From the NCBI GenBank assembly GCA_963674945.2, contig CAXXWQ010000003.1, forward strand, positions 864,001-928,000: DNA of 64,000 bases. The letters are read 5' to 3'. A program made the position numbers and the translations under genes. Below are positions 4,211-45,362 of this stretch, one piece after another (position 1 is the stretch's first letter; every line of letters starts with the position of its first letter). This DNA is from an uncultured Desulfosarcina sp. (GTDB lineage Bacteria > Desulfobacterota > Desulfobacteria > Desulfobacterales > Desulfosarcinaceae). The notes beneath the pieces were generated by a model. The model saw nothing but the letters and a program-made list of their open reading frames with translations. It searched no databases and was not told the origin of the DNA.

Positions 4211-5650
4211 TTAAATGAGATCGACTTTCTCACTGCCTCCGACATTGATGAACTGTACCCATTTCTTGGGCGCATAGATGATGAAGGTCAAATAACAGAG
4301 AATCATCCATCGATATGCGGGAGCCAAGACAGCCAGATCCATTTTCATCAATGGAGCAAGCTGTTTGACAGCAAGAACCTGAGAACTCAACTCGCCAACG
4401 AAAGCCTTGGTGGTGCCGGCCATATTCTTGCCGGTATCATCCCAGGTCGTGGTGCCACTGCCAGCCTGACTGGTTGCTCGAACACGGGCGACCAACATTT
4501 TGACCGAACCACCGACTTTGGTCTTGTAGATATTGAAATACTCGGGTTCAATGGTAACCGAACCCGCATTTGTGATGGTGAACGGAATGTGTTTTGCCAC
4601 ATCATCGGAACCAACGGTAACCGGGGAACCGATGGCCACGGCGGCCGATTCACCGTACCGGTTAACGGCGGAAACGGCGTAATTGTAAACACCGGCACCG
4701 CCATGGGTTGTCCAGACACCATCGGTACCCGTCATCGATCCGGCCGCAATGGAGGCCGGGGGCGTCGGTGCTTTACCACTGGTTGCCGAAGCCGGCGCGA
4801 TTTTCCCAGCGTTCAAGAACACATCGGGATTCAGATTCACCTTACCGAAAGGCGTATTCACGTCGGGAATATTGGCGCCGACGGTATAACCACCCTGTCC
4901 GGTCGGCAGGGGCACACGCTCTTTGGGCAACATGGTGTCACAGAAGGCCTGATGGGCCGCAAAACTCAAGAATACATCCGTGGGATTCCCGTAGTTACTG
5001 GCGACCATCTGGGCGGCCAAGGAGAACGCACCTTCGGACAAAGCGGCGCCCTTGAGGTCGATGACATTGCCGGAATCGATCTGTTTCTCGATGCCATTGA
5101 ATTCCACACCCTCACGATGGGTGGAATCGGTGGCCGCTCCCAGATAACACATGTCGGCGTCGCCGTTGAGCAGACCCCACTCCAGATTTTTGAGAATCCA
5201 GAGAATACCGTTGGTGTTTTCCTGGGCCGTCACATCCCCGATATTGGTTTTTACCAAAGTCATGGGATGGGAAATGCTCCTGGTCGTACCCAGAAATTTC
5301 ACCAGGGAGGTCTGTCGGTTATAGGTGGAATCCACGGTTTCGGGCAGGGTTCCTTCGGGAAGAAAGGCTCCGCTCTCATCACCGACCGCCGACAACTGGT
5401 TAAACTCTTCGACGGTGGAGTACGCAGGCAGCTTGGGCACTCTTTGCCAGAAGGCACAGTGTTTGGCCTGATGGGTCAGAACCTTCAAAGAGGCTTCCAG
5501 GGACTCGACACGCAATGCCCCACCACCGGAAACGGGCGGATTGTCATAGCCGGCGGTCAGAGCTTTGTTGAGATCCTCGACTTCCCGCATGCTGGTGAAT
5601 CCCATGGTATGGATATCTTCATACTGGGCAAGGGTGATAATATCGTTCAT
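4211..5650 (-). CDS. Major capsid protein (Twort/SPO1-like)
   Basis: 479 aa; LNKALTAGY...GGALRVESLE, STVEEF, QLAPLMKMDLA...APKKWV motifs; follows protease and scaffold. Confidence 0.9.
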   Translation of the reverse strand: MNDIITLAQYEDIHTMGFTSMREVEDLNKALTAGYDNPPVSGGGALRVESLEASLKVLTHQAKHCAFWQRVPKLPAYSTVEEFNQLSAVGDESGAFLPEGTLPETVDSTYNRQTSLVKFLGTTRSISHPMTLVKTNIGDVTAQENTNGILWILKNLEWGLLNGDADMCYLGAATDSTHREGVEFNGIEKQIDSGNVIDLKGAALSEGAFSLAAQMVASNYGNPTDVFLSFAAHQAFCDTMLPKERVPLPTGQGGYTVGANIPDVNTPFGKVNLNPDVFLNAGKIAPASATSGKAPTPPASIAAGSMTGTDGVWTTHGGAGVYNYAVSAVNRYGESAAVAIGSPVTVGSDDVAKHIPFTITNAGSVTIEPEYFNIYKTKVGGSVKMLVARVRATSQAGSGTTTWDDTGKNMAGTTKAFVGELSSQVLAVKQLAPLMKMDLAVLAPAYRWMILCYLTFIIYAPKKWVQFINVGGSEKVDLI

Positions 5651-5674
5651 TTTAAGATCCTCCTAATAATTGGT

Positions 5675-5686
5675 GTAATTAATTAC
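5675..5686. promoter_or_regulatory. Palindrome GTAATTAATTAC upstream of the major capsid gene
   Basis: Perfect 12-bp palindrome recurring across the window. Confidence 0.75.
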
Positions 5687-5707
5687 TTTGTTTTAAAGCG
5701 AAATTTT

Positions 5708-6505
5708 TTACTCGCTGGTGAGTTTTTTGATCAAATGCGGCGAAAGTGAACCACCGGACTCGAATCTGACGATATCCATGGATGTCACAGCCGGATCACC
5801 CCTCTCAAACATCGATGTCAGGGACTTGAGGATTTGATCTTTGCTCATCTCTTTTTTTTCACCCTCACCACCCTCGAAAGACTTCTGTAAAACTGTGGTT
5901 TTAGACTTCGGAGTCCGAAGAGGTTGCTTGGCCAATTCATTGTTCAAGGCTTCCACGGACTTGCGAAGGTCTTCGGTCTGACGATCCGTTCGATCCGCTA
6001 CGGACTGAAAAGACTTCTTCAATGTATCGACGATGGAAAGGGCAATATTCTGATTAGCCTCGGTGGCCTTGAACAGACTCTTCTCGATGGCGTCAAGCCT
6101 CTCAGTTTGCGCCTGACGGATTCCATCGATGGCCTCGCCGACTTTATCGACAAGGGCGGCCAAGAAATCACTCACTTCGACGGCTTTTTGGATATCCTCA
6201 TTGTCGTTAATGAGATCTTCCGTGAAAGGACTGTCTTCGGAACCGGCTTCGGCGCTTTGACTTTTCTCGACACCTTCATCGTCGTTTCCATCTTCATCTT
6301 CATCTTCATCGCCATCGCCGCTTTTTTCCAGGTCGCCGCCGCAGCCCTTGTCCAAATCCTCGATGCCACCATCGGTTTGACTCTTTTCCAAATCCTCGTT
6401 CTCTCCATCACCCGATGGAATCAGTCCTTTGGCGAGTTTTTCAAGCTCATCCAAAGCCGCGAAGAAAGAATTTTCGGGGATGGCTTTTTCTTTTTGTTCA
6501 AGCAT
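5708..6505 (-). CDS. Capsid scaffolding protein
   Basis: Acidic and helical, many LEKS/IEKS/LRKS/LQKS motifs; between protease and capsid; start MLEQKEK after AAGGAGG. Confidence 0.75.
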   Translation of the reverse strand: MLEQKEKAIPENSFFAALDELEKLAKGLIPSGDGENEDLEKSQTDGGIEDLDKGCGGDLEKSGDGDEDEDEDGNDDEGVEKSQSAEAGSEDSPFTEDLINDNEDIQKAVEVSDFLAALVDKVGEAIDGIRQAQTERLDAIEKSLFKATEANQNIALSIVDTLKKSFQSVADRTDRQTEDLRKSVEALNNELAKQPLRTPKSKTTVLQKSFEGGEGEKKEMSKDQILKSLTSMFERGDPAVTSMDIVRFESGGSLSPHLIKKLTSE

Positions 6506-6521
6506 GATTACCTCCTTGTAA

Positions 6522-7415
6522 TTATGATTTGACACTTGCCAAAAATTTCTGCATGACAGAATTGAAAACCATTTGTACCAACCGTCTGGCTTTTTCCTCG
6601 GAATAGCCTCTTTCTTTCATCAGACGTTCAATGGCTTCTTTTTCAGTGATTTCGCCGCCGGCTCCAGGCATATCCAAATTGGTAAGCCCTTCTTCGATAG
6701 ATTCTTTACGAAGCGCAGACCCTCCGCTTTGCGGTGGATTCTGATTTCCGGCTTCCATCATTTTGGCCAGATCTCCAGACATTTTTTCCGGACCACGAGA
6801 AAAAATCTTTCTGAAAGCCGATAATATGACGTTCTCCATCCGCTCCCAGTACCCCAAAGGTTCGGGCTCCTTGGGTGTCTCTTCCTCATCTTCAACGTAA
6901 CCGTTGACTTCAATGTCGTTGGAAATACTTTTGATCACATCAAGGAAAGTATCGGGGTGCATCGGCTCGGCGGTGATGGCGATATCTTTGATCCAGCTTC
7001 TCTTGACGATCTTGCCGTCTCTTTTGAGTGTTTTTCCTTCGACACTGAGACCAAGCCGACGATCACTGCCAGATTTTTGCAGAGCATCGGCAAGTTCAAC
7101 GATACCTTGGGCGCGAGGCGTGTCGAACAGATATCCTCTAACCCTCAAACCTTCAGGGGTAACCGCAGCTTCTGTAGGCACACCAACTTTCCCGTCGGTC
7201 GTCTTGGAATGGTTGTCGTTGAAATAACCCCGGGAGAGAAGATACGAAAGATCCATCCCAGCCAAAATCACCGTCTCACCAACAAGGTCAGGGGACTCGA
7301 CGGAAGCGACACCATCGATCCAGGTTTTTCCGTCCTTTCCCTTTTTCAGATCGAGCGGAACATGAAACCGGAACGATCCGTCATCGTGAATGCCTAATGG
7401 TATTTGTGATTCCAT
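6522..7415 (-). CDS. Prohead maturation protease
   Basis: GVAS..PDLVGE, FNDNH, GLSVEG, AITAEP motifs of HK97/Twort-type prohead proteases. Confidence 0.85.
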   Translation of the reverse strand: MESQIPLGIHDDGSFRFHVPLDLKKGKDGKTWIDGVASVESPDLVGETVILAGMDLSYLLSRGYFNDNHSKTTDGKVGVPTEAAVTPEGLRVRGYLFDTPRAQGIVELADALQKSGSDRRLGLSVEGKTLKRDGKIVKRSWIKDIAITAEPMHPDTFLDVIKSISNDIEVNGYVEDEEETPKEPEPLGYWERMENVILSAFRKIFSRGPEKMSGDLAKMMEAGNQNPPQSGGSALRKESIEEGLTNLDMPGAGGEITEKEAIERLMKERGYSEEKARRLVQMVFNSVMQKFLASVKS

Positions 7416-8242: not shown

Positions 8243-9082
8243 TTATTTACCCTTGGGCTTTTTGAAAACGATTCGACCATCGTTATCGAACTCATGAAGT
8301 TTTGGATTGAAATATGCCACTTCACAGAAACAGTGAGGATGAAGGGGTGGAAGCCCCGGTGCCCGCCGGATCTCCGCAGCCGTCCGGTCGACGTTGTTCC
8401 TGGCGGCTAAATCGGCAAGTTTGAATACTCGTGGTTTTCCCCTCAACAGAAAAGCCGATCGACAGAGATCACAACAATCCGGGTGCGGGCGGACAATCAC
8501 GCAGGACTCAGCCCCGAACTGTTTTGTAATGCCATGGGCGATGCCATTTGTCCGGGCGCCATGCAATTCAGTATTGACGATCCGGTGCCAATCCCTTTGG
8601 ACATCTTCGGTCGCCCGCCGTAGCAAAGCGATCATCTCTCCCCGGGCTTTCCTCTCCCGGGCCGCATTCGACATTGTTTCCTGAATAATCCCCCGCATGG
8701 CCGTTTCCTTGGCCGCATCCTGAACGATCCTCAACGTAGTCGATTCGATCCGGTTCCCCAGGCCCTGGCAATAAAGGGCAGCCGAATCATTCAACCATTT
8801 GATTGAAGCCTTTTCGATATCGCTCAATGGCAGCCGGCGAATGGTATCCTTGATCATGTCAAAAGACGCCCCGGCCAGCCTCGGGTCCAGTGAACTGAGC
8901 ACACCGAATAAATAGGCATCAGCGACGGCGCTATCCGGTACGGATGGATCGATAATACCTGCCGCCTGGAGTTTGCGAATATCGATTCCAGATGGAGGGC
9001 TGCCGGTAAATTGATAGATGGCGATCCCCACATGCTCCCGGATGATTCGGGCGATTTCTTCGATCTGTTCTTTATTCAGCAT
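8243..9082 (-). CDS. MuF-like minor head protein
   Basis: RIVNTE, HPDCCDLC and PPLHPHCFC motifs. Confidence 0.75.
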   Translation of the reverse strand: MLNKEQIEEIARIIREHVGIAIYQFTGSPPSGIDIRKLQAAGIIDPSVPDSAVADAYLFGVLSSLDPRLAGASFDMIKDTIRRLPLSDIEKASIKWLNDSAALYCQGLGNRIESTTLRIVQDAAKETAMRGIIQETMSNAARERKARGEMIALLRRATEDVQRDWHRIVNTELHGARTNGIAHGITKQFGAESCVIVRPHPDCCDLCRSAFLLRGKPRVFKLADLAARNNVDRTAAEIRRAPGLPPLHPHCFCEVAYFNPKLHEFDNDGRIVFKKPKGK

Positions 9083-10144: not shown

Positions 10145-12226
10145 TTAAATATCCACCGTTTTCCTTTCCCGGGCAAGGTTTCTGGAAGCCGCTTGCCTCT
10201 GAGCCTCTTTTTCTCTTTCCTCATTGGCGATCGCCGCTTTGATCGGCTTTTCGACATCGAACCGCGAAGGCAGATTTAAAGCCGCAGCCCGCTTCCCGGA
10301 AAAGACCGATGCAGGCAACCTTTCTTTAAACCAAGCCGTCAACGCCTTCGATCCGGTTTCCCAAAGCCTTCGGGGAAGCATCGTATGATATTTGGACGGA
10401 ACCGCTGAACCGGCCAAAATCCGATCGCCGATTTGCATAATCGTCGGAGCGTCCTTGGGCGCTATTCCCAACCTTATCATTTGGGCCGCATATTCCGCCC
10501 GATGATCCGGTTTCTTCATTTCCGTTCGCACTTCCTTTATCACTCTCTCATCCTTCGGATGAACCGGTGCGAGCTTTCTTTTCCGCTCCATCGCGCTTCT
10601 CAGCGAAACATCCTTTTTCAATGTTGCTTTGAAATCGGGATAACTCGACGCCTCGGCCTTGAACGCTTCCTTGATTCGCTCCAATTCCTTCGGTAACAGC
10701 ACTGTTTCAATAGTGGAGGTCGCATACGGTTTCATGGTCTTCGGATTGTAAACATAACCGGCCAGCTCTTCGGCTGCCTGCCTTCGCGTAAGCGTTGCTT
10801 GAAATACGCCGATACCGGTCCATCGTTTCATAACATCGAGAATCTTTTGATCTTCATAAAGCCAACTCATCAAATCCGCTTCATCGGCAAGACCTTCCTC
10901 CAAGAGTATAGCCTCTTCCTTCGAAACAAATGGCGAAGCGATGATGTCATTCGAATCACCGGCTAAGAACTCATCGACCGCCGTCTTGTCAATAGACGAT
11001 AACGGACTCTTTTTATCCGTATCGTCCGGTAAAAAATCATCACGAACGGTAGACATCTCCCTTTCATGAATCTTTACCGCTTCACTCCGGGCGTACGAAC
11101 GTGCATATTGCCGCAACCGCTCTTCAATCCCGCTTCCCTCGCCCAACAAAGGTTCGTAGCTGGCCACAGCCTTAACCAAAGCATCAATGAAAGTCGCAGG
11201 TGTGACATCCCCTTCAGTAACGCTGGGATATTTCATAGTTGTCGCGGACACTGTTTTTTCGAGCATCGGCCAATGTTCAGCCAGAATCCGCCGGGCAATA
11301 TCTTCATCTTCCTTGGTTGCTTGTCGGTAACCGCCGGCGGCGTACTTGAAATGGCCTTTCCGATGCAATTCCCCAGTTTCCAGCTCGATACTTAACGGTT
11401 TACCAACAGCTTTAGGATTATGTAACCGTGGAACCCGCTCATATTTCTGATTTTTTAGTGTGGATTGAAGAAGACTGTCTCCGATGGTTTTCGTAATAGT
11501 TGTCTTTATCCCCGGAACATGAAAATCAACCTCATATTCCATTTTGGTGCCAACCTTTCGCGTAGATTTCACAACAAAAACCCTACCATCCGGGCGTCGA
11601 TATGTTCCTCCGACCGTTAGTTTAGTCTTTTCCTCTGCAACCCGCTCCTGGATGGTTTTCTTCCGCTCCTTGTCTTTGTAATACATTTCGTAATCGCCAC
11701 GATCGACCAGAGTGGTTTCACCCTTTGCATTGGTCACCTCGACAGTTTTACGTTCGACCACTTTCTTTGTAACATCATTGGCCCGATGAACCAGTTCGAT
11801 GTGGTTGACATTCATGGTCTTGGCTTCATGCTTCCCGGTCTTTGGATTGAGAAAAGCAACCGACACCCTCGGCGAAGGACCCGCAATAGACCCGCGGAAA
11901 ACCCCCTCACGCCCCTTTTCGCTGCCCCAGGTTATCTTCACTTTGTCGCCTTCAGAAAACCGCACCATATCCTTGCTATCAATTACATGATCCCGTTTAA
12001 TATCCTCGTGATGATCCTTTTCCTCTCCTTCACGATGATGGACTACCCGAGTCAATTTCGGCTTTTTCCCGGCATCCGGCTTCACCCAATAGATCCGTTC
12101 GACCCCATCCTTTCCAACGATCTTTTTCGGGACCAGATTAGTAAAATACCCGTGTTTGAACCCGGCCTTCTCCAAAAGCAGTTCATCCACTGACACGACT
12201 ACAAAATTCGACGCATCAAGGAACAT
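10145..12226 (-). CDS. Putative capsid-packaged protein with KOW/SH3-like and degenerate sigma70-like regions
   Basis: LLEKAG N-terminal motif; FSEGDKVKITWG KOW-like; region-2-like ARRILAEHWPML...ALVKAVASYEP; region-4-like TLTRRQAAEEL. Confidence 0.5.
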   Translation of the reverse strand: MFLDASNFVVVSVDELLLEKAGFKHGYFTNLVPKKIVGKDGVERIYWVKPDAGKKPKLTRVVHHREGEEKDHHEDIKRDHVIDSKDMVRFSEGDKVKITWGSEKGREGVFRGSIAGPSPRVSVAFLNPKTGKHEAKTMNVNHIELVHRANDVTKKVVERKTVEVTNAKGETTLVDRGDYEMYYKDKERKKTIQERVAEEKTKLTVGGTYRRPDGRVFVVKSTRKVGTKMEYEVDFHVPGIKTTITKTIGDSLLQSTLKNQKYERVPRLHNPKAVGKPLSIELETGELHRKGHFKYAAGGYRQATKEDEDIARRILAEHWPMLEKTVSATTMKYPSVTEGDVTPATFIDALVKAVASYEPLLGEGSGIEERLRQYARSYARSEAVKIHEREMSTVRDDFLPDDTDKKSPLSSIDKTAVDEFLAGDSNDIIASPFVSKEEAILLEEGLADEADLMSWLYEDQKILDVMKRWTGIGVFQATLTRRQAAEELAGYVYNPKTMKPYATSTIETVLLPKELERIKEAFKAEASSYPDFKATLKKDVSLRSAMERKRKLAPVHPKDERVIKEVRTEMKKPDHRAEYAAQMIRLGIAPKDAPTIMQIGDRILAGSAVPSKYHTMLPRRLWETGSKALTAWFKERLPASVFSGKRAAALNLPSRFDVEKPIKAAIANEEREKEAQRQAASRNLARERKTVDI

Positions 12227-12258: not shown

Positions 12259-13021
12259 TTGGATTTATAGGTAAAATTAACTGTTTTTCTTTCAATTCAC
12301 CAGTATCAGCACTGGGTGATCGTGACTTCAGATCGTCAATGGCATCAAGCACCTCTTTCGGGTCCCGGCCGGAAGCCTTCACATCCGCCTGGTGGAGAGC
12401 AAGCAATGGTTCGAAATGTTCATGTGCCATGAATTTTCGCGCATCTCTTTCGCCCGATCGGAGAAACTTGGTCCGCAGGTTCCCATGGTGGAGAACCAGG
12501 TGCCTGATCTCCTTTTTATCATCACGGGAGAAACCCAGGCGATCCAAAACCTTTCCCACCATTTTGTAGCCGGCGTACTCATGGCCATCGAAGACAATAC
12601 CGCGATCGGGATCTGCCTTTTGGGTTTCCGCCTTTCCGATGTCATGCAGCAAAGCCGCCCACCGCACGTTATCGCTGGCATCCGCCGGCAAATGTTTGAT
12701 GACCTGCATCGTATGATCAAACGCATCCCGGTAAGGGTGATGGGCGCCCTGCTCCACCCCGTACAAGGTGACCACCTCGGGCAGAGAATTCATGAAGCCG
12801 CCGGTCTTGATCTTCGTCTCCAGCTCTTTCAACCCATCCGGGCTTTGAAGCAGTTTCGTCACGGTTTCCCGGATCTTCACCATCCCCTTGTCAGGTGCAA
12901 CGAAATGACGAACCTTTTGTTTCGATGAATGAGAACCCCTTTTATCCCGCTTGTCATCGTGCTCTTTGACGACCTGGAGCTTTCCCTGCCGATATCGAGT
13001 GTATTGCTTAACGTGGGACAT
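12251..13021 (-). CDS. HD-domain phosphohydrolase (CCA-enzyme-type HD) with N-terminal SHVKQYTR motif
   Basis: EQGAHHP..DAFDHT, WAALLHDIGK, GHE, HH, AD metal-binding pattern. Confidence 0.8.
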   Translation of the reverse strand: MSHVKQYTRYRQGKLQVVKEHDDKRDKRGSHSSKQKVRHFVAPDKGMVKIRETVTKLLQSPDGLKELETKIKTGGFMNSLPEVVTLYGVEQGAHHPYRDAFDHTMQVIKHLPADASDNVRWAALLHDIGKAETQKADPDRGIVFDGHEYAGYKMVGKVLDRLGFSRDDKKEIRHLVLHHGNLRTKFLRSGERDARKFMAHEHFEPLLALHQADVKASGRDPKEVLDAIDDLKSRSPSADTGELKEKQLILPINPSN

Positions 13022-13030
13022 AAACCTCCG

Positions 13031-13324
13031 CTACTTCTTGACGATGAATTTCCTCGATCGGCGTTCGTCTTCCATGGGAATTGCCTTTCGGCGTTTTTCG
13101 ACAAATTCCCATGGACTCGAAATGGTAACCATGTCACCGTCTTTGACCGTCGAATCCTCGTACTGGCACTCAACGCCTTGATTTTGAATCGTACCGGCAA
13201 AAAGAGGACAGGCAGCACAGTAATTTTTCTGATGTGTTTCATCCAAAACGGCAACCTGCCTGAGATATTCACAATAGATTTGATTATTCAAATCGGGATA
13301 GTTCAAATGCAGAACGTTTTTCAT
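13031..13324 (-). CDS. Small Cys-rich hypothetical protein
   Basis: 97 aa, YCAACP, GGGGG RBS. Confidence 0.6.
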   Translation of the reverse strand: MKNVLHLNYPDLNNQIYCEYLRQVAVLDETHQKNYCAACPLFAGTIQNQGVECQYEDSTVKDGDMVTISSPWEFVEKRRKAIPMEDERRSRKFIVKK

Positions 13325-13852
13325 GCTTTCCCCCTTACGGCCGACTGGTGTTACCGAATCGATCCGTCAATTCCAGATCAACCCAATACATCGGAATGAC
13401 GCCATTCGGATCTTTGACAACATGTTCATCATTCACCACGGCGCTGCTGTATCCTGGGACCATTTTTCCTTTTGGAGCAAAAATCGAATCTGCCTTGGTG
13501 ATATCTGCTATTTCATGCCTTTTACTGTTCGACGCACCAGTGGATTTATCGTGCACCTTGCCCAAGGAAATTTTATTGATCAAAAAGACCCCGCGGGTCC
13601 CGGGTTGCCTGGTCACATGACAATCCCCTTTGAGATATTGCGCAGATTTGGAACTCATGTCTGTGACATACACACCCCCGCCAAGCATCCCACCGCTTGA
13701 AGCCCGGTACGCAGACTTCACGATACCGGCTGCAGCAGCAAAATTGGTGGAATGGTAACCGAACATGATATTGTCTCGATCTTTTTCAATTCTCTTGAAT
13801 TTATCGTACTGATCCATGCCTCCAATCTGATAAATGCCATGAACCTTAAAAT

Positions 13853-16308
13853 CAGGAAACTTGATTTCCTAATTGTTGCATATGGCAAGCAAAACATAAT
13901 GTAAGTGGTTGAAAAACAGAAAGATAGGAGTCTGAATCCAGCAGGCCGGTAAGGTATTGCAACCGGAAAATGAACATGGCACCTTTAACCTTATTATCTT
14001 GGCGGATAAATGAAAGGAAAAGGATGCCATGCCTCAACAGATACTACCACTTATTCCTCGGGGTGCAAGACAAATCAACGGGCTTGTCAGTGTATTTCGT
14101 GACGATACGACCTGGACCTATTTTCTATCGACCGTTCCGATTTATTCTCACAGACAAGGCGATCAACGAATGTTTCGGATGATAACAGCCCAACTGGTTG
14201 AATCCGGAGCTTGCCGCCAGATCGATATCCAAAACACATTCGGCGTATCCAAGAGCAATGTCATCCGATCCGTGAACAAACTCAGGTCCGGCGGCGCCGA
14301 GGCATTTTTCGTTCAGCGGCGGGGACGACGCGGCGGCAAGGTTTTCAAACCTGAGGTGCTTGAACAAGCCCAACGTTTACTGGATCAAGGGTGCTCGAAA
14401 AAAGATGCCGCCCTGGAACTTGGCATTAAATACGATACGTTTCGCAAAGCTATAGATGATGGTCGGTTAATCGAATCAAGGATTGGTGAACCGTGTCTAA
14501 CCAAATCAGATCGGGACATGGTCGACATGGCTGCTGCCGATGGTATGGGGACGGCTTGCAACCGAGTCGGGGAACGCATATTGGCATCATTGGGCAAAAT
14601 GGTTGGTGCGCCGGTTCGTTTTGACAGATGCCTGGACGTTCCCAAAGCAGGCGTTCTTTGTGCGATACCGTCATTGGTGGCAAACGGGTTGTTTACCGGC
14701 GCAAAACAGTTCCTCGGCCAAGTCAAAGGCTATTACACGATCTTTCATGTCTTGTTGCTGCTTTCGTTTATGGCCTTATGCAGGATCAAGACGACAGAAA
14801 AAATACGAGGCCATGCTCCGGGAGAATTTGGTAAGTTATTGGGCTTGGATCGTGCACCGGAGGTTCGCTGTTTGCGTTACAAGATGGATGCGTTGAGCGC
14901 AGACCACGGCGCGGAAAAGTGGGCCGCATACCTCGGTAAATACTGGATGGAACAGGCGCCCGAATCGGTTGGCGCGCTTTATGTTGACGGGCATGTACGT
15001 GTTTATCATGGAAAATTGACCCGACTACCGCGCCGCTACGTGTCCCGGGAACGATTGTGCATGAGGGGCATTACCGACTATTGGGTTAACGATGCGATTG
15101 GCCGACCTTTTTTTGTCGTCGAAAAGCAGATCGATCCTGGATTATTGGCGGTTTTAAGAGACGATATCGTTCCCCGGTTGTTGCAAGACGTTCCGAATCA
15201 ACCCGGTTTGCAGCAACTACAAGAGAACCCATGTTTATGCCGGTTCGTTCTTGTTTTCGACAGGGAAGGATATAGTCCCGCATTCTTCAAGGAAATGTGG
15301 GATCGCCATCGAATCGGCTGCATGACGTATCATAAGCATCCTGGTGAATCATGGCCGGAGCATTGGTTCACCGAGTATGAAGTTGCGATGCCAAACAAAG
15401 AGGTGGTGAAGATGCGGCTTTGCGAAATGGGTAGTTTGGTGGGATCTGGTAAGGGTGCAACATGGATGCGACAAGTGCGAAAACTGACCGATTCCGGACA
15501 CCAGACCAGCGTAATCAGCACCGCTTTCGATTTGCCGCATACTCAATTGGCAGCACGCATGTTCAGCCGGTGGTGTCAGGAAAACTTTTTCAACTATATG
15601 ATGCAACATTTTGATATCGATGTGCTTTTAGATTATGGTGTCGTTGAATTTCCTGATACCGAACGGGTAATCAACCCCGTTTGGCGGCAATTGAATCAAT
15701 CCCGTAATTCGTTGCAGAACAAGCTACGATATCGTCGTGCCTGTTTTGCCGAGATGACCATTCACCCTGAAAATGAAGACAAACCGGTAAAGTTTAAGAA
15801 GTGGATAGAGAAAAAGGCCGAGCTGTTAGAAGAAATCGAAAAGATGGAGTATCAACTCAGCGAGTTGAAAGAAAAACGAAAACAGACAAGTAAACACATC
15901 ACGTGGGGAGAACTTGAAGCAAAAGATAAATTTTTACGTTTACAACCGGGCAGAAAACGCCTGATGGACACGGTTCGTATGATTGCATATCGTGCAGAGA
16001 CGGCAATGGTTGGGTTGCTCACGGGTCCGACGGTAAACTCGTCGGATGCACGGAGTCTTCTCCAGACACTGTTCCAGACCGAAGGCGATGTACTGCCCGA
16101 TATTGAAAATCAGCAATTGAATATACGATTGCACGGCGCTTCGTTCCCAGCGGCCAATCGGGCTCTTTGCCAACTGTTTGCGCATCTGAACAGTGCGCAG
16201 GTAAAATACCCCGGTACCGAGCTGCAAATGATATTCGAACTAAATGGCTGCAGCACCTCAAATCATGCCGGAGGTGTCACATAGTTTTCCCGGAGATGCA
16301 GTGTTCTG
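13853..16308 (+). mobile_element. 2456-bp insertion sequence, copy 1 (family unassigned)
   Basis: Near-identical to 52978-55433; ends CAGGAAAC...GTGTTCTG; 5-bp target duplication AAAAT at 13848-13852 and 16309-16313. Confidence 0.95.
14029..16284 (+). CDS. Transposase (751 aa, DDE-like)
   Basis: Sole long ORF of the repeated element; YVDGH, VFDREG and RWCQENFF motifs. Confidence 0.9.
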   Translation: MPQQILPLIPRGARQINGLVSVFRDDTTWTYFLSTVPIYSHRQGDQRMFRMITAQLVESGACRQIDIQNTFGVSKSNVIRSVNKLRSGGAEAFFVQRRGRRGGKVFKPEVLEQAQRLLDQGCSKKDAALELGIKYDTFRKAIDDGRLIESRIGEPCLTKSDRDMVDMAAADGMGTACNRVGERILASLGKMVGAPVRFDRCLDVPKAGVLCAIPSLVANGLFTGAKQFLGQVKGYYTIFHVLLLLSFMALCRIKTTEKIRGHAPGEFGKLLGLDRAPEVRCLRYKMDALSADHGAEKWAAYLGKYWMEQAPESVGALYVDGHVRVYHGKLTRLPRRYVSRERLCMRGITDYWVNDAIGRPFFVVEKQIDPGLLAVLRDDIVPRLLQDVPNQPGLQQLQENPCLCRFVLVFDREGYSPAFFKEMWDRHRIGCMTYHKHPGESWPEHWFTEYEVAMPNKEVVKMRLCEMGSLVGSGKGATWMRQVRKLTDSGHQTSVISTAFDLPHTQLAARMFSRWCQENFFNYMMQHFDIDVLLDYGVVEFPDTERVINPVWRQLNQSRNSLQNKLRYRRACFAEMTIHPENEDKPVKFKKWIEKKAELLEEIEKMEYQLSELKEKRKQTSKHITWGELEAKDKFLRLQPGRKRLMDTVRMIAYRAETAMVGLLTGPTVNSSDARSLLQTLFQTEGDVLPDIENQQLNIRLHGASFPAANRALCQLFAHLNSAQVKYPGTELQMIFELNGCSTSNHAGGVT

Positions 16309-18756
16309 AAAATAGAATCCACCATGGGCCTTTTTATCCCACCGATTTTCAATCTTCTTCATGATGAAATCGTGAGTCTTTTGGTCAACCGATTTAAAAG
16401 TGCACCCCAGATTATTTGGCGGCGGCTCCCCTTGATTTTTGGCAGGAGCATTTACATCCACCCCTTTTGCCTTGAGCTTTTTCTGCTTCTCGACCTCTTT
16501 CCAATATCTCTTGGACATCTGATCGACGACGCCATCATAGGAGCCAGATTTTCTAGCGATCTTCATGCCGATAGCCCGGGGACCTTCCTTATCCATCAAC
16601 CCTTTGGGAAAAACTCGAGCCGTGAATTCACGGTCGTAATTTTTCGATATTCTCGTAGAGCCCTCTTTGGCAACATAATTTGCCGCAAACTGATCCCGCA
16701 TCATGTCATTGGCCTGAATCTTTTCATCGACCTTATCACTCATGGATTCAGTCACTTTTGTTGCCAGCGAAATATCAAAAATTTCAGTATGAGTTCTCCA
16801 ATGATTTGTCGGATCCGGTTTAGAACCATCTGCAAGCAGATATTGAACCAAATCATGATGTTCACTTATCCAATAGCTGCTACGATTGAACATGTTTCTT
16901 ATTATACTGTTTCTGTTATAATGAGACCCAAAATTACCCACCACTTCTTTGACAATACTGCTCTTTAACTCCAAATGATTCATGTACGAATCGGTATTGT
17001 AAATTTTTGCTCCTGGTTTTGTTTTTGTCGACGGATTATCGGCGATAAATTTTTCATAGCCGGTAAGAAAATCCCTTAATGTCATCTGGTCAGCCGGCTT
17101 GCCAAAGTCTGGGCCGGCCATGGCGTGCATCAAAGTTAAACATGAATCATGATCAAACCTGGGCGCATGATCCAGTAAAGAGTAATGCTTCAAAGTATTT
17201 GAGACATTACTGTCGAGATGAACATGATCCTCCATTTGTTCAGAGAAGCCTCCGGTGACCTTTTTGGAAATACGTTTATATGTATATTCAAGCACATGAT
17301 TGATCACATCAAAAGCCTTATGCTCTCGACCCTTTTCCGCCATACTCTTCAAATCAGTTTGGATATCTTCGATATGTGGCTTGACGTCTTTGTCATAATC
17401 GTATCCGGCCTTTTCCCAATCATCCTTGCTGTAGAACGCAAAACCAACCAGGTTACTTGAAACCTCCGGATCATTTATCGACCAATCATTAGGCGGCCGA
17501 TAAGCCAAAATTTTGAATGAACGCCGGCTGTACCTTGAATTCAAATCAGAATTCACCCATTGCGGAACCGTATAACCAGTTCGAGTTTTAATCCCATACC
17601 AGCTCCCATTGCTTTTGTTGTAACCTTGATAACTTGACCGCCCACTGCTGCCCCTTTTGGCCGTAATCAATTGAAGATTCTTTTCGATGTACTCGGCAGC
17701 AGCAGGATCCAGCGGAACCATGCCAGTGACCTTGGCTATAGATCGCTGTTTCTCGGTTGAATATTTCCAAGCCTCCCTTTTATCGTGAGGAAAATCCTGG
17801 GCCGTTTTGATAGGTTCAACCTTTTTCGGCTCCGGTTTCGCATCGGGTTTGATATCGACTGCAGGTGTATTGCCTGGGGTCAACGACGGCTGCCCGGACA
17901 AATTGACCAATGCCTTCGGACTTGCATCGGTATAAGTTCCATCATCCAGCTTCATTCGAACGACATCGTATTTGTCGGAATAGGAAGTGACCACTCCCTC
18001 TTTATCATGATGCTTGCTGCGAGGATTGCTGATGCGAACCTTGTCACCCGGATCGAAAGTGGTTTTGGGAGGTGCCGCCGGAGCCGGTTTACTATCCGGA
18101 GCTGCACTTTTGGCTTTTTTCGGTGTTTGGTTCTGGGCCCGCTTAATCAATTCGGCTTCGATCTTCTTGGCAACATCCCTTTTGTCTTGGCTGTTTGCCC
18201 ACTCCAGAAGTGCACGCATGAAATTGTAAAGCTTCTGGTCGCCCTTGATTTTCCCGATCCGGGCTTCCAATTGCTTGGCATCCATTCCCTCGACACGTTG
18301 CTTTTCATGCTTCATGTCATTATGAACGAAAGACACCCCAACCAGGCCAAGGGCCAGCTTTGCACCATCCAGATCCGTCACCCCGGGCGCCGGCGTAGCG
18401 GCGGGCGCCGTCGGCGCTGCCGCCGGTGTGGGAGCCGCACCCGTATGGGGTTCAAGTAAATGAGGCTCGAAATCGGCCGTATGACTCTTCCCGGGGATCT
18501 CCAGTCGGATGACATCGTATTTGTCAGAGTAATGCTTAACCTTCATCACCTGGTCATGGAATTTGCTCCGAGGATTATTCACTCGGACCATATGCCCCTG
18601 GTGAAACTCGGCATCCGCCTTGCCATGGATCTTCGAATCATAATCTTTGATATGAATCAGTTTTCCGGTTTTCGGATCTCTTCGGAAATGAGATTTCACA
18701 TGGGCTTTTTCAAGATCGATGGTGATGTAATGGCGCATACCCCCCCCTCCATCATT

Positions 18757-18792: not shown

Positions 18793-19548
18793 TTACACGA
18801 ATAAGACACACAGTACGTCTCTTCGACAGTTGGACCTCTCCATCCCATCCAAATCGAGGGCTTTCTTTATTGACTCCTTGAGACGGTCATACTCAGCCTT
18901 GATCTTGTCGCGCTCCGGACCAGCCTTTGAATGGGCCAGAATTTCCTCCAGGTTCTCCAGATAATCAGCTTTCGAAATACGAAATTTACTGGCACATCGA
19001 CAAGGTTTTTCACTCCCACAGGCAGAGCAAATTGTATTGTATTTTTGAAGATAATCCGACTTGCTCAACCCGGTGAAAGACAATGACTTGATCATCCCCT
19101 TGGACTGAATGGCAAGGCGCTGCTTAAAGACTGACATGTCCATCTCGGTCATCCCACCGAACAACTTTTGGCCGATCTTGTCGTAATTCGCCATGAAGGC
19201 CGCTTTCGCATCTTCCTTGGAATCGAAACAAAGAAAAACCTTATCCTCGTCGAACTTCCCATTGTCAGCCCGGTTCATGTGGACCACGAAAACTCTCTCA
19301 GAACCCCGTGACGGCCCGATAAAGCAATCGATATGATCATCGTCGGCACCCTTTCGCCGAACCTCATCAGAAAGACGGATATACCCGTAAGCATGCTTCA
19401 TTTTGGTTCGCCACTCGTGGCCATCCTTATCGACACCTTTGCGGACAGATCCCTTGCGATTCTCGATCGAAATATTCAGTCCTTGAAAATCCGTCCGCCC
19501 TTGGAGCTTATAGGCTTTTTTTTCAAGATCGATGATCAATTTTGTCAT
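18793..19548 (-). CDS. Inorganic-pyrophosphatase-like (InPase) domain protein of the type seen in phage polyvalent proteins
   Basis: ISIENRKGSVRKG.D.DG..W...M...YGYI, GADDDHIDCFIG, FDEDKV motifs; start MTKLIIDLEKKA. Confidence 0.75.
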   Translation of the reverse strand: MTKLIIDLEKKAYKLQGRTDFQGLNISIENRKGSVRKGVDKDGHEWRTKMKHAYGYIRLSDEVRRKGADDDHIDCFIGPSRGSERVFVVHMNRADNGKFDEDKVFLCFDSKEDAKAAFMANYDKIGQKLFGGMTEMDMSVFKQRLAIQSKGMIKSLSFTGLSKSDYLQKYNTICSACGSEKPCRCASKFRISKADYLENLEEILAHSKAGPERDKIKAEYDRLKESIKKALDLDGMERSNCRRDVLCVLFV

Positions 19549-19576
19549 TGCGGGTCCCTCTCTATTTATACTCATT

Positions 19577-19682: not shown

Positions 19683-19943
19683 ATGGTAAAAATCGATGAC
19701 CTACTATTGATATTGAAGCGAAATCCGAAGGATATCCGATTTTCAGATTTGTGCAAAGTATGTGACCATTTTTTTGGAGAGGCGCGACAGAAAAAAAGCA
19801 GTCATCGAATTTACAAGACACCTTGGCAAGGCGATCCAAGGGTAAATATCCAAAATGAAAAAGGAAAGGCCAAAGCATATCAAGTAAAGCAGGTGCTTTT
19901 GGCTATCGAGAAATTGGAGGTAAGCCATGGCCAAAAAAAATGA
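19683..19943 (+). CDS. hicA: HicA-like toxin
   Basis: NPKDIRFSDL, SSHRIYK, GKAKAYQVKQV; overlaps the antitoxin gene. Confidence 0.8.
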   Translation: MVKIDDLLLILKRNPKDIRFSDLCKVCDHFFGEARQKKSSHRIYKTPWQGDPRVNIQNEKGKAKAYQVKQVLLAIEKLEVSHGQKK

Positions 19944-20259
19944 TAAATATACATACAGGGTTACCTGGTCTGAAGATGATACAGAGTATGTGGGCCTATG
20001 TGCTGAGTTTCCCAGCTTGAGTTGGCTGGCCGATACACCTGAAAAAGCCTTAAAAGGCATCCGAAATCTTGTAGCAGAGGTGTTATTAGACATGACCCAA
20101 ACCAGCGAACCAATTCCCAAACCAATAGCAAGTAAACATTTTAGCGGGAAATTTATGGTCCGGATACCTCCAGAGGTGCATAGAAAATTAGCCATACAAG
20201 CTGCTGAATCCGGCATAAGTCTCAATCGTATTATCAGCTCCAAATTGAGCCAGATGTGA
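19927..20259 (+). CDS. hicB: HicB family antitoxin
   Basis: YTYRVTWSEDD.EYVGLCAEFP; C-terminal ribbon-helix-helix FSGKFMVRIPPEVH...SLN. Confidence 0.88.
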   Translation: MAKKNDKYTYRVTWSEDDTEYVGLCAEFPSLSWLADTPEKALKGIRNLVAEVLLDMTQTSEPIPKPIASKHFSGKFMVRIPPEVHRKLAIQAAESGISLNRIISSKLSQM

Positions 20260-27806: not shown

Positions 27807-29444
27807 TCAACTGGCGAGCATGATTTGGAGATACTTACTCTCAGCACCGACAAGCGCCTTTTCCATTTCCTCGCCATTCAGCTCATCCTCTGCCGAAATC
27901 TCCTGATTTTCCTGTCCTCCACCCCCTTCCTGACCCTGTTCCTGGCTATTCTCTTCTTCTGAACCTTCCTCCGATTCTCCACCTTCACCGCCGCCCCCCA
28001 TCATACCAGCCATGGCTTGCTGGTTTAACCACATGACATATTGAGGATTCAAGATAAGGCCGCCGCCCTTATCTTCCCCAAGCGGTTCGCGCCCAGCTTC
28101 AATCCGTGCCTCATCGACGGTAAGGTATGACCCCACTTCTTTTGTCCGAAGATCGATAACCTCTTTCTCATCTTTGGAGTCGATGCCGACCCAAACGAAT
28201 CGAAACTCATCCGTTAAGGGCTCGATGATGTAATGATTCACCCATCGGCCAACAGACGCAAGAAGAGGCCGAAGGCCTTTATCCTTCGACATCTTGAGCT
28301 TGGCTTCCTGATTGGATTCGAACAACGGTGCAGAACCACCGCTGCCGGCTGACATGAAGAACCCGATTTCTCCGGCGTCAATCGAATAAACAGCGCAAGC
28401 AATTTTTACAAGAAAATCAAGGTATTGTGTAAACTCCATTTCGCGGTTCGTCGAACCCATGTTGACGAATTCCACCCCATCCGTCTGAAGAATCGGCGTC
28501 GACCAGGCGTTTTTAGTTCCAGTAACCATCGCCCGCCACGCCCGCTTAAACGCTTCAAGCTGATCACCCATGACACCTGACTGGGCCTTGCCGGTTTTAA
28601 TATTGATCAATCCCTTCACGGCCGCTCCATTCTGGAAAAACTGACTGTTATGGGTCATGGCGTTGAAGATATTGGTCACGATCGACACGAGCTGCTCAAG
28701 CTCGCTCACCCCGTAACCATTATTCTTGATATTGGTCGTGGGATTCCGGATGCCGTACAAAATCTCATCCGGTTCGTATTCAGTGACTATTTGGCCATTG
28801 AGAACCTGGACGTACTTCTTGTCATCCAACCCTTCGTCATCTTTTTGAGCCAATGCCAAACGGATAGTCGCCGCATCAACAGCATAAAAAGAATGAAGAC
28901 CGCCTTTCCGGGTCGGAAGCAGCTCAGTCACAGCCGCATCGAATGTAAGTGAATCCCTCACCGTCTTTTTCAACCAGGTGTCGAAGTTATCTCTACCGGC
29001 ACGAGTCTGCTTGGGGTCGACATAACCACATCGACGAATGAAATTTTCTAAATCTTTGACATACTGCTCTTCGCTTTTGGACAACTTCTTATTCGGATCT
29101 TTGTGTGCGACACGGAAGCCAAGCTGATCATTGCCAGTGGTTTCCATCTCGCTGACGGGTGCCGAAAAAACTCCGACCTGCCGAATCCTCGTATTAACGA
29201 TCGAACTGATAATAGGATTCTTTTCGGCCATCACCCGAAGAGTATCCCAAGTTAAATTGCTCCGCCGTTCACGCCAGAGACCATATTGACTCGTAAAATC
29301 ATAAGGATTGACAAAAAAGGTTTGTGGAGTATCTCGACGTGCGGGGAGTTTTTCACCACTGACGCTTTCTTTTTTGGCTTTTGCCAATTCCTCCGCCGCG
29401 AACTCGTTCAACAGTTCAAAAAACTCTTGGTTTTCCATTGCCAT
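27807..29444 (-). CDS. Portal protein
   Basis: 545 aa; VRDSLTFD, VDAATI, GYGVSELE, REMEF..Y, SKDKGLRPLL motifs of Twort-like portals. Confidence 0.9.
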   Translation of the reverse strand: MAMENQEFFELLNEFAAEELAKAKKESVSGEKLPARRDTPQTFFVNPYDFTSQYGLWRERRSNLTWDTLRVMAEKNPIISSIVNTRIRQVGVFSAPVSEMETTGNDQLGFRVAHKDPNKKLSKSEEQYVKDLENFIRRCGYVDPKQTRAGRDNFDTWLKKTVRDSLTFDAAVTELLPTRKGGLHSFYAVDAATIRLALAQKDDEGLDDKKYVQVLNGQIVTEYEPDEILYGIRNPTTNIKNNGYGVSELEQLVSIVTNIFNAMTHNSQFFQNGAAVKGLINIKTGKAQSGVMGDQLEAFKRAWRAMVTGTKNAWSTPILQTDGVEFVNMGSTNREMEFTQYLDFLVKIACAVYSIDAGEIGFFMSAGSGGSAPLFESNQEAKLKMSKDKGLRPLLASVGRWVNHYIIEPLTDEFRFVWVGIDSKDEKEVIDLRTKEVGSYLTVDEARIEAGREPLGEDKGGGLILNPQYVMWLNQQAMAGMMGGGGEGGESEEGSEEENSQEQGQEGGGGQENQEISAEDELNGEEMEKALVGAESKYLQIMLAS

Positions 29445-29669: not shown

Positions 29670-29715
29670 GTAATTAATTACTTAAATTCTATAACATGGC
29701 GCAGGATGGTGTCAA
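29670..29715 (-). promoter_or_regulatory. Sigma70-like promoter followed by the GTAATTAATTAC palindrome
   Basis: TTGACA-18-TAGAAT on the minus strand; palindrome at 29670-29681 near the expected +1. Confidence 0.65.
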
Positions 29716-29882
29716 CTGGAAAGGTGAAATGCTATTATAAAATGTAGCGGCAAAAAGTTTGATACTACCTGTAGTTAAGGAATTTCCAAAAAACAGACGA
29801 CCGGTGCCTCCTGATCATGATTGCTTCAGGAGCCTTGTCCTGATACAGATGAAGGAAATAAGTGAACAAAGGAGGTCAGGAA

Positions 29883-30200
29883 TTGAAAGTGGCAATGATC
29901 ATCTGTCAGGACACGACCGAGGTTATTTGGAATGCCTTCAGGCTCGGCAACATGATGCTTGAGGGAATGGATGATGTCAGCATCTTTTTAAATGGTCCCT
30001 CTGTCAAATATGAGTCATTCGATTCTGACCAATTTCCCTTAAAGGAACTGGCAAAGATATTCACGCTTTCCGAAGGTCAGCTTCTTGCCTGAGGGAAATT
30101 ACTGGACCTTCACGGTGTGAAGGAAGGATACCATAAAAGGGGTACTCAGAAAGACCTTTATGATTTAATAAAAGAAAGTGATAAGGTGATTTCATTCTGA
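29883..30200 (+). CDS. DsrE-family selenoprotein (UGA read as Sec)
   Basis: WNAFRLG, SIFLNGPSV; in-frame TGA at 30090-30092 in LLA-U-G, the conserved Cys position; frame continues to IKESDKVISF; hairpin downstream. Confidence 0.8.
30107..30123 (+). promoter_or_regulatory. Putative bacterial SECIS hairpin
   Basis: CCTTCAC-GGT-GTGAAGG perfect 7-bp stem, G in the loop, 14 nt after the UGA. Confidence 0.65.
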
Positions 30201-30358
30201 TTCATTCGAAAAAACAGAGGAGCTAACATGGGATGTTGCCATTCAGCTCCTTCGCGCTAAAGCCCGCTGGGATTAATAAAAATATGAAACAGGACATTTT
30301 GATAAACCAAACTACGGCCAGAACCTGCCAGGCAAATCGGTAGATGAGGAGTGATAAA

Positions 30359-30751: not shown

Positions 30752-30856
30752 ATAAAAACATTTAACGATGTAAATTAACTCGGACTGCAAAAAATCGTGC
30801 CACTTAGCTCTCGGTTATTTGCACCGTTCTGGAGCACAAAAAAGGAGGAGATAAAC

Positions 30857-31390: not shown

Positions 31391-31532
31391 CATTGTCGGA
31401 ATTTAATCGGCAACCTTCTACATTCTCCGGATCAAAACAGTCTGCATTTATCCTTTTACAAAAAATTGTTGTTCCCGGTACCAATTTCATGTTTGTGGTA
31501 AAACAAATTTCTTGTTCGCTAATATTAACCAA
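31287..31532 (-). pseudogene. PilZ-like gene remnant
   Basis: VNISEQEICFTTNMKLVPGTTIF resembles LNFCCNGVCFLTDKQLDPGTTIL of 38310-38636; runs into the hemerythrin gene. Confidence 0.4.
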
Positions 31533-38636: not shown

Positions 38637-38643
38637 TGGACTT

Positions 38644-45349: not shown

Positions 45350-45362
45350 TGTGTTTTTCCTT

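Follow-up and report, generated by a model that had tools for sequence, protein, structure and literature searches.

A large phage family with a PARP1-like catalytic domain and an adjacent four-cysteine gene, represented by an insertion-split fossil in a Desulfosarcina prophage

Introduction

Genes for PARP-class proteins have been described in the phages Aeh1 (PMC1266365) and phi4:1 of Cellulophaga (PMC4245714), PARPs of a few jumbo phages were suggested to transfer polymers (PMC7824862), and for twenty years the PARP-like genes of phages have been catalogued under 'unknown function' (PMC10789625), with no activity found in the literature covered. PART/PARP is among the commonest viral ADP-ribosyltransferase (ART) families, and about 44% of phage ARTs lie in packaging-type contexts (PMC9503650, section 3.7.1). 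Here we analyse a stretch of 64,000 nucleotides from an uncultured Desulfosarcina sp. (GCA_963674945.2, contig CAXXWQ010000003.1, positions 864,001 to 928,000; hereafter the window, to which coordinates refer unless a contig is named), in which a prophage carries the gene for a 980-amino acid (aa) protein with a PARP1-like catalytic domain, split by an insertion sequence (IS) and followed by a small gene with four conserved cysteines.

The split gene belongs to a large phage family that ends in a PARP1-like His-Tyr-Glu (H-Y-E) domain and is encoded in the head module of SPO1/SP10-like myoviruses. Both phage PARPs and ARTs encoded in head modules have been published before, and the general idea is not new. 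The initial annotation of the locus, made from the DNA letters alone, overstated its novelty in view of these reports (PMC1266365, PMC4245714, PMC7824862); the homologue of phage YungSlug (QKE56383.1) already bears the name 'PARP polymerase', the orthologues in LysYB1/2 and Nachito being unnamed, and the main text of the YungSlug genomics paper holds 0 occurrences of 'PARP' or 'ADP-ribos' (PMC12474458). The family as such, its leader and its partner were not found described in the literature covered, in which the partner was not searched by name, subscription papers lay mostly outside and supplements were not included; the supplements of PMC9503650 may list these proteins and their neighbourhoods. 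What is apparently new is a large head-module PARP family with a seemingly dedicated partner of no known fold.

Reconstruction of the interrupted gene

The pieces of the gene and the element that separates them are as follows.

13853 to 16308, plus strand: insertion sequence with a transposase at 14029-16284 (Pfam Transposase_29, E 4.6e-170)
13848 to 13852, unstranded: target-site duplication, left copy (right copy at 16309-16313)
16309 to 18738, minus strand: upstream 810 codons of the split gene, comprising the leader, two KOW/SH3 repeats, a helical middle and the opening 34 aa of the PARP domain (residues 1-810 are 48% identical to the intact homologue P0002)
13335 to 13847, minus strand: downstream 170 codons, most of the PARP catalytic domain (Pfam PARP 7.7e-10; 61-76% identity to P0001-P0004)

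The IS measures 2456 bp, has the termini CAG...CTG and is flanked by identical 5 bases on either side. Its removal together with one copy of the duplication joins 810 stop-free codons (18738-16309) in frame to 170 codons (13847-13338), yielding 980 aa before a stop at 13335, just as the initial annotation had proposed. The search for intact fused homologues that it called for returned four proteins of 965-974 aa, in 4/4 of which the alignment to both pieces crosses the junction without gap or extra residue, and the genes of intact relatives (965-1033 aa) likewise sit between those for portal and head protease. The upstream piece is presently read as an 826-aa open reading frame (ORF; 16258-18738), the last 16 codons of which are derived from the IS, and the downstream piece is listed as a 160-aa ORF that starts at an internal Met (13817). 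The idea that the IS hides the protein from annotation thus holds for the full-length fusion, whereas the domain itself stays visible, as the 160-aa ORF passes the Pfam cut-off. Independent expression of this ORF was considered and rejected, since its start is an internal Met conserved in the intact homologues and the first 44 aa of the domain would be lost; no sigma-70-type promoter was found in 12900-14100. The window copy is a pseudogene, an IS-inactivated member of the family and a fossil only, which cannot act because it is broken by the IS.

A second copy of the same IS lies at 52978-55433, differs by 1 base and has its own 5-bp duplication; it interrupts another prophage gene without family (51905-52977 and 55439-55997, plus strand). 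Altogether, 28 full-length copies (99.8-100% identity) are present in the genome, 23 of them with a 5-bp duplication, and for this reason we consider the IS to have been recently active. Its ends form short imperfect terminal repeats, and the 5-bp targets are A/T-rich, mostly A-a-n-t-T. The transposase did not match any NCBIfam family in an NCBIfam scan, and the IS group is apparently without a name; the 28 copies would allow a clean description. Read depth (X1) was 21-24 in the flanks versus 564 in the IS, approximately as expected from one prophage copy per 28 IS copies, although depth is not a copy number. The empty-site joint (13847 to 16309) was not seen among the contigs of 4 runs (3 samples, 1 study), which is uninformative on its absence, since contigs drop rare variants.

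The PARP-class catalytic domain

Both sequence comparison and structure modelling assign a PARP-class fold with an H-Y-E triad to the C-terminal ~200 aa, with a similarity that is beyond chance. The relevant positions are listed here.

16309 to 16410, minus strand: first 34 aa of the PARP catalytic domain, with the IS between them and the remainder (aligned to PARP1 at profile positions 7-42)
13749 to 13754, minus strand: triad His (13752-13754), followed by Ser (13749-13751) where Gly is usual (frame check, conservation)
13635 to 13688, minus strand: PARP signature stretch with Met (13686-13688), triad Tyr (13668-13670), Lys (13647-13649) and second Tyr (13635-13637) (PARP1 alignment, conservation)
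13425 to 13427, minus strand: catalytic Glu of the triad (conserved in 153/154; strand E942-945 of the model)

The downstream 160-aa ORF alone matches Pfam PARP (PF00644) with 39 bits against a gathering cut-off of 26.7, the intact P0002 scores 38 bits, and 54 of 56 family members lie above the cut-off. A profile of five relatives aligns to PARP1 over positions 7-143 of 209 (E 7e-9), and PARP1 chains are the top Protein Data Bank matches by sequence. Because this alignment begins at position 7, the IS sits inside the domain, 34 residues from its start. The PARP1-like part, given initially as about 220 aa, is indeed present, but its extent is rather ~204 aa, with 34 upstream and 170 downstream of the IS. 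An AlphaFold2 model of P0002 (16 sequences in the alignment; mean predicted local distance difference test score, pLDDT, 76) ranked PARP1 first both by Foldseek (5e-11) and by VIA (Z 17.2), the latter followed by PARP2, tankyrase and PARP4, and the domain superimposes on 5DS3 with a root-mean-square deviation (rmsd) of 3.2 over 192 residues.

Read in the frame of the downstream piece, the three triad codons named by the initial annotation do specify His, Tyr and Glu. His and Tyr were assigned from PARP1 alignments, and Glu from conservation together with the model strand rather than from a PARP1 alignment. A profile search of 1.84 billion representatives returned 1002 clusters at E<=0.001 and 176 at 1e-10, and conservation was assessed on 154 proteins, namely the best 150 of the 1002 clusters and four others. 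Among these, His is kept in 151, Tyr in 152, Lys, the second Tyr and Glu in 153 each and the signature Met in 121, counts that are biased upward because the matches were ranked by a profile holding the same residues. In poly(ADP-ribose) polymerases the signature Lys and Met have a part in polymer elongation. The position after His is Gly in 142 proteins, Ser in 6, Ala in 4 and a gap in 2. It corresponds to G863, one of the nicotinamide-site residues of PARP1 (PMC5966428); at the site G863/S904/Y907 the Ser and Tyr positions are retained, and Gly is replaced by Ser in the clade of this locus. That clade comprises the window piece, P0001-P0004 and P0008 (support 0.97; midpoint-rooted tree of 150 rows, 5 having been dropped as short or duplicate), and within it no other part of the protein is as well conserved as the domain (61-76% identity versus 35-49% upstream). 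Intact copies very probably encode an active transferase. Synthesis of poly(ADP-ribose) by the enzyme is possible, though somewhat less likely than not.

The phage PARP family

Eight of the best 150 matches look Gig2-like. In the other 146 proteins the domain is C-terminal in 145, more than 250 aa stand in front of it in 122, and these long N-terminal regions carry several leader types across the family. WGR, PARP_reg and MuF domains gave no Pfam match in 56 family members or in the window pieces, while the same scan on three other viral PARPs detected PARP_reg on 3 and WGR on 2; the upstream piece likewise did not match MuF in Pfam, PHROGs or NCBIfam. In PADLOC neither the PARP nor its four-cysteine partner was matched. 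A search for the full-length protein in 61 relatives matched the genome of the window (G000) and G052 (intact), with a KOW-only match in G009.

Cultured carriers amount to four among 50,697 phage records at E<=0.001, namely LysYB1, LysYB2, YungSlug and Nachito, and in the three records examined (YungSlug, LysYB2 and Nachito) the PARP gene stands directly before the portal gene. More broadly, of the 15 viral contigs that hold this PARP type, 12 have head genes close to it. Identity among these three phages is 33-34% for the PARP protein as against 64-70% for the portal and 66-77% for the capsid; by sequence, the PARP protein is fast-diverging. Three contigs (L048, L049 and L051) hold two divergent PARP-family genes within a few kb, L048 having several short leader-like ORFs as well. 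The Gig2-like matches (P0031, P0035, P0083, P0091, P0116, P0125, P0126 and P0144) are the only recognised eukaryotic proteins in the top 150, PARP1 not being among them; four of the 8 were looked up and all are vertebrate, one being named 'GCRV-induced gene 2o'. The phage family may be among the nearer prokaryotic relatives of Gig2.

The four-cysteine partner gene

Immediately downstream of the split gene lies a small ORF that starts 10 bases after the PARP stop.

13031 to 13324, minus strand: 97-aa four-cysteine partner gene, intact (no Pfam, PHROG, NCBIfam or PADLOC family above cut-off)

This gene is the least-known part of the locus, and the initial annotation flagged neither it nor the Ser that replaces Gly after the triad His. 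Nine residues are invariant in 25/25 aligned members (H6, N8, C18, C36, C39, G50, E52, C53 and D57, forming H-x-N, C, C-x-x-C, G-V-E-C and D), and from its four cysteines the protein is inferred to bind zinc. The model of the partner is confident (pLDDT 91.6), yet no solved fold matched it: only 12 of 48,161 chains reached Z>=2, the best at 2.7, although a missing match is no proof of a new fold. In a viral library there was one match at E<=0.001, a 94-aa protein with 37% identity that is probably a member of the partner family, and the matches in the Atlas are unnamed clusters.

The association of the two genes was recovered from either side. A DNA pattern of the partner alone hit 8 viral contigs; on 7 of them a PARP domain is encoded no more than ~0.6 kb away, and the eighth breaks off in a neighbouring gene whose start resembles the family member P0044; a second partner pattern gave 0 matches. 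Conversely, a pattern of the PARP signature alone matched 18 contigs with 20 loci in all; 15 of the contigs hold this PARP type and 3 the WGR/PARP_reg type. The partner is present on 14 of these 15 related contigs, the remaining one being cut off where it would be, versus 0/3 of the contigs with WGR/PARP_reg-type PARPs. In the 50,697 phage records the PARP and the partner match the same 4, and in 401 genomes of the phylum the partner profile matched G000 only. Moreover, SP10 and Goe26 lack both genes: 12 bp separate their minor head gene (60-61% identical) from the portal gene, versus 2.9 kb holding exactly the pair in carriers, from which we conclude that both genes come and go together and are dispensable for growth. 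The partner lies upstream of the PARP gene in Bacillus-type phages and downstream in the type of the window, adjacency being kept despite the swapped order, and one contig carries two tandem PARP and partner pairs. The two genes, then, travel as a two-gene accessory cassette.

Median net charge is -4 for the partner and +7 for the PARP domain, the leader motif discussed below occurs in 1 of 24 partner proteins, and among the cultured phages the partner is 42-49% identical versus 33-34% for the PARP protein. That the partner is functionally coupled to the PARP seems to us very likely. Whether it acts as an inhibitor, rather than as a cofactor or chaperone, is close to an even call, and we lean slightly away from it.

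The N-terminal region and its putative packaging motif

The N-terminal features of the reconstructed protein, and the head-module genes with which they are compared, are the following.

18703 to 18714, minus strand: L-E-K-A motif (residues 9-12), putative prohead-protease site (motif common to the N-termini of portal, scaffold and major capsid protein)
18637 to 18702, minus strand: basic beta-hairpin leader (residues 13-34), putative packaging signal (strands E15-20 and E27-29 in the P0002 model)
18451 to 18609, minus strand: KOW/SH3-like repeat 1 (~residues 44-96; Pfam KOW in P0013 and P0015; VIA Z 8.6, model 44-109)
17893 to 18057, minus strand: KOW/SH3-like repeat 2 (~residues 228-282; VIA Z 9.1, rmsd 1.1 over 53 residues to NusG KOW; direct repeat D1)
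27807 to 29444, minus strand: portal protein gene (Pfam, PHROGs)
18793 to 19575, minus strand: InPase-domain gene of polyvalent-protein type, predicted virion cargo, upstream neighbour (Pfam InPase 2.9e-41; PMC5512222)
12251 to 13021, minus strand: HD-domain gene, the next one downstream, whose basic hairpin leader is similar (family scans, comparison)
10145 to 12226, minus strand: 693-aa protein without family, with an L-E-K-A leader, syntenic in close relatives (family scans)
8243 to 9082, minus strand: gene for a minor head protein (its homologue in Nachito bears the annotation 'minor capsid protein')
4211 to 7415, minus strand: head protease (6522-7415), scaffold (5708-6535) and major capsid protein (4211-5650), SPO1/SP10-like (PHROGs)

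Besides the PARP domain, the two KOW/SH3 repeats (Z ~9) are the only folds recognised, ~residues 300-750 not having been searched separately. The helical region before the domain was considered as a PARP1-type regulatory domain and rejected, as Foldseek spans it only at an rmsd of 12-14 and Pfam PARP_reg gave no match.

The split gene lies on the minus strand between the portal gene and the genes for head protease, scaffold and capsid (PHROGs), and its homologues in L009, L014/L015 and L016/L025 are likewise placed between portal and protease. The order InPase, PARP, 97-aa gene, HD, 693-aa gene, minor head gene and protease is kept in L009/L010 and L014/L015, and up to the contig ends in L016/L025 and L018. 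Of 30 structural-region ORFs, 7 (portal, InPase, split PARP protein, 693-aa protein, scaffold, capsid and 560-aa protein) show the motif L-x-K-[AS] or L-x-K-K-[AS] among their 45 N-terminal residues, versus 2 of 33 early/replication ORFs. The scaffold holds six copies along its length and the capsid one near its N-terminus. In T4-type heads the prohead-protease sites are likewise found in many copies in the scaffold and once near the N-terminus of the capsid protein. By this analogy L-x-K-[AS] would be a putative prohead-protease cleavage site in the phage group considered here. A motif of this type also stands near the N-terminus of portal, scaffold and capsid in three cultured Spounavirinae, and a looser one is visible in portal, protease, scaffold and capsid of three cultured relatives. 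Across the family, [LIVM]-x-K-[AS] is found in the first 45 aa of 48 of 122 members versus 264 of 2083 (12.7%) other windows (shuffle mean 14.8, maximum 24).

The sharing of the motif with portal, scaffold and capsid suggests that the protein is packaged, as do its head-module position, the L-x-K-[AS] leader and its cargo-type neighbours; in other words, a head-module gene encodes a motif common to putatively protease-processed head proteins. Packaging into the head therefore appears probable to us.

The hairpin leader is common to the split gene and a 560-aa gene of the same prophage (L012:18095-19777; ending at window position 776 and running back past position 1). This gene adjoins the tail genes and combines the PARP-protein-like leader hairpin and a KOW repeat with a different, unassigned C-terminal part; its product is likely a second cargo protein. 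In relatives, the place upstream of the PARP gene is taken by a gene for a 1129-aa InPase fusion including the leader/KOW module (L010:4256-7645) or a helicase-like ORF (L018:155-1924), so that this slot looks like a variable cargo array.

Proposed mechanism and alternative explanations

As the most likely reading, we propose a virion-delivered ART that is restrained by a partner left out of the particle. In intact phages, the PARP gene would be expressed late in infection, the N-terminal leader would bring a few PARP copies into the prohead, and the prohead protease would cut the leader at L-x-K-[AS]. The protein would then enter the next host together with the DNA and ADP-ribosylate host proteins, such as transcription, translation or defence components, before phage gene expression. 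The acidic partner, having no leader, would be left behind and would silence the basic catalytic domain in the producing cell. The whole scheme would make a PARP-class counterpart of T4 Alt. That the protein is packaged and active, with the partner regulating it in one manner or another, is moderately probable; that a widespread myovirus clade packages a true poly(ADP-ribose) polymerase without the DNA-sensing domains of PARP1 and injects it at infection to poly-ADP-ribosylate host targets, controlled by a zinc-binding new-fold inhibitor or an HPF1-like cofactor, is doubtful. The observation made by the initial annotation is confirmed, and its interpretation of a capsid-packaged, injected enzyme is partly supported; the NAD depletion that it also envisaged finds no support and would, we infer, harm a phage relying on host metabolism.

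Several points weigh against this proposal. Seventy-four of the 122 family members are without the leader motif, and the three cultured homologues that were compared do not show it at their N-termini as annotated. A direct literature source for cleavage at L-x-K-[AS] was not found, the consulted passages of PMC3601020 included, and virion proteomics, an activity assay or a target was not found in the literature for any family member. The contigs that link the PARP and the partner are kin, 5 being found by both patterns and two pairs looking identical, so their counts overstate independence. Two contigs hold two PARP genes with one partner, which is at odds with a strict one-to-one immunity. 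The similarity of PARP and partner is correlated with a Spearman coefficient of 0.59 versus 0.80 for PARP and minor head gene (11 loci), and on this ground their co-evolution shows no excess over shared descent. Finally, the clade of this locus departs from Gly after the triad His (6/154 Ser versus 142/154 Gly).

In this clade the domain might have become a weak or dead enzyme, an NAD or ADP-ribose binder or a slow NADase, through Gly-to-Ser in the nicotinamide pocket. G863 is among the nicotinamide-site residues of PARP1, and Ser is found only in the one clade and in the outlier P0128, which has also lost the His. We nevertheless regard this as very unlikely, for the remaining NAD-site and catalytic residues are all kept, conservation of the protein is highest in the domain, four other members have Ala at this place, and the Gly of PARP1 makes its contact via the backbone. 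The lack of the motif in the cultured homologues would fit a protein that is not delivered at all and acts late in the infected cell, on host defence proteins that sense portal or terminase or on phage proteins in assembly. Such a role has been put forward as another possibility where ARTs lie in packaging modules (PMC9503650, section 3.7.1), and the gene position indicates late expression only. The leader motif that this clade has in common with portal, scaffold and capsid, the long N-terminal regions of several leader types and the predicted cargo nature of the InPase neighbour argue against it, and we hold it to be unlikely.

As to the small gene, it could be an activating or specificity cofactor, as HPF1 is for PARP1, or a folding or packaging adaptor, the enzyme needing it in the producing cell or after co-delivery. 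The invariant surface-type residues H6, N8, E52 and D57 could complete the active site in the manner of the HPF1 Glu (PMC10789625), a single partner can accompany two PARP genes, and the partner is more conserved than the PARP protein. Against a cofactor stand the rarity of the leader motif among partners, so that co-packaging would require piggy-backing, the want of fold likeness to solved chains (best Z 2.7) and the contig on which the partner is duplicated along with the PARP; we think it rather unlikely. A small ORF of <150 aa beside a C-terminal ART in a packaging module is, moreover, the pattern of MuF toxins (PMC5576092), and particles might then poison or stall non-immune cells while lysogens making the small protein are protected. 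The window copy does lie in an integrated prophage with the partner still intact, and one contig has tandem pairs. Nevertheless, a MuF domain was found in 0 of the 56 members scanned, MuF toxins are reported from temperate phages only whereas the carriers here include cultured Spounavirinae, which are generally virulent, and the partner is conserved whereas immunity proteins usually diversify along with their toxins. We consider such a toxin-immunity pair quite unlikely.

We therefore retain delivery of the enzyme in the virion and its restraint by the partner as the preferred explanation. If the protein is packaged and active, the strategy of T4 Alt extends to the PARP class, and this could be the first viral poly-ADP-ribosylation in bacteria. 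Modelled with confidence and of no known fold, the partner is a candidate for a protein that regulates a PARP domain. A direct test is possible, because YungSlug, Nachito and LysYB1/2 are cultured and carry the cassette intact, and SP10 and Goe26 provide close natural 'minus' controls.

Prophage setting

The prophage capsid is 48% identical to those of the Bacillus phages Nachito and SP10, and sheath-like and baseplate-like genes were recognised by inspection. The minor head gene was considered as MuF and rejected, as NCBIfam gave no match except a weak one (0.013) for one distant relative. The prophage is decaying, as seen from nine repeated IS-like intervals within 143 kb around the window, the second gene split by the IS and a helicase in two pieces. 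The latter, of superfamily 2, lies in two ORFs (49587-51068, plus strand) that match consecutive parts of one PHROG, and it is probably broken.

Further genes of the window include a 7-deazaguanine DNA-modification cluster at 44010-48349 (minus strand) with a queuine tRNA-ribosyltransferase-like gene, QueF, QueC, FolE, QueE and QueD; the first gene may be of DpdA type, two ParB-like genes lie downstream, and an IS1595-family transposase (48388-49368) adjoins the cluster. Between terminase (39300-40907) and portal, ~9.5 kb (29700-39200) hold host-like genes, unusual in a packaging module, among them a hybrid histidine kinase and, by eye, a hemerythrin/RIC-like and an IHF-like ORF; they may represent cargo or a rearrangement. 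An 86-aa ORF (likely HicA, by eye) precedes a HicB-type antitoxin gene at 19683-20259 on the plus strand, opposite to the head module around them, and L014 has no such insertion at this place.

Some 50 kb ahead of the window (G000:C3 ~809100-815300) there is an array of 104 clustered regularly interspaced short palindromic repeats (CRISPR) with cas genes, type I-F by eye. When the 103 spacers were compared with the genome outside the array, none matched the prophage, and one matched two chromosomal sites over 30/30 bases (C3:1996453-1996482 and C1:418079-418108).

Comparison with known systems

With PARP1/2/3 (PF00644; 4DQY, 5DS3, 6BHV) the phage protein shares the fold, H-Y-E, the residues at the S904/Y907 positions and the signature Met and Lys. 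It differs by having no WGR, PARP_reg, zinc-finger or BRCT domain, by a pre-signature loop that is ~6 residues shorter and by Ser for G863 in the clade of this locus, and it has the leader, the KOW repeats and an unassigned helical region instead. The WGR-PARP_reg-PARP enzymes of Herpetosiphon and C. difficile CD160 (PMC8120803, PMC5966428) are also prokaryotic H-Y-E PARPs, two of which are active in vitro; theirs is a DNA-activated architecture, and the three met here lie outside head modules and are without the partner, one being near a macrodomain gene. Gig2-like proteins of aquatic vertebrates resemble the phage proteins in the short loop and the signature, but form a separate clade outside them (support 1.0) in the midpoint-rooted tree.

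Among phages, the PARPs of Aeromonas phage Aeh1, phi4:1 and a jumbo phage (BBA65562.1) likewise have a PARP-class domain on a large protein, and the extra region of the Aeh1 PARP is described as distantly coat-protein-like. The T4-like and jumbo phage PARPs are not among the 4 phage records at E<=0.001, phiAS5 and pf16 being fold matches only, and the passages cited on these earlier PARPs make no mention of a partner gene. MuF toxins (PMC5576092) and polyvalent proteins (PMC5512222) share with the present locus the place in the packaging module, the C-terminal ART, a small adjacent ORF (97 aa, <150) and the InPase neighbour. However, MuF toxins carry the domain that the PARP family lacks, and polyvalent proteins, which combine at least two disparate catalytic domains in a single chain, have an ART of H-Y-D type (Tox-ART-HYD2) rather than H-Y-E, with one enzymatic domain recognised here (~300-750 not searched separately). 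T4 Alt is the closest in the proposed role, being a late head cargo that is delivered with the DNA and modifies host proteins (PMC9503650, PMC5512222); no comparable partner of Alt is known from the literature covered, and, as the initial annotation had correctly pointed out, Alt and Mod are of the R-S-E class, in contrast to the H-Y-E/PARP class of the present domain (PMC9503650). The nearest described relatives are the proteins of YungSlug, LysYB1/2 and Nachito (Herelleviridae, Spounavirinae), which share 31-36% domain identity, have a length of ~870 aa and are encoded in the head module next to a four-cysteine gene. They are distinguished from the window copy by another leader type, by Gly after the triad His, by a partner that lies upstream, and by being intact.

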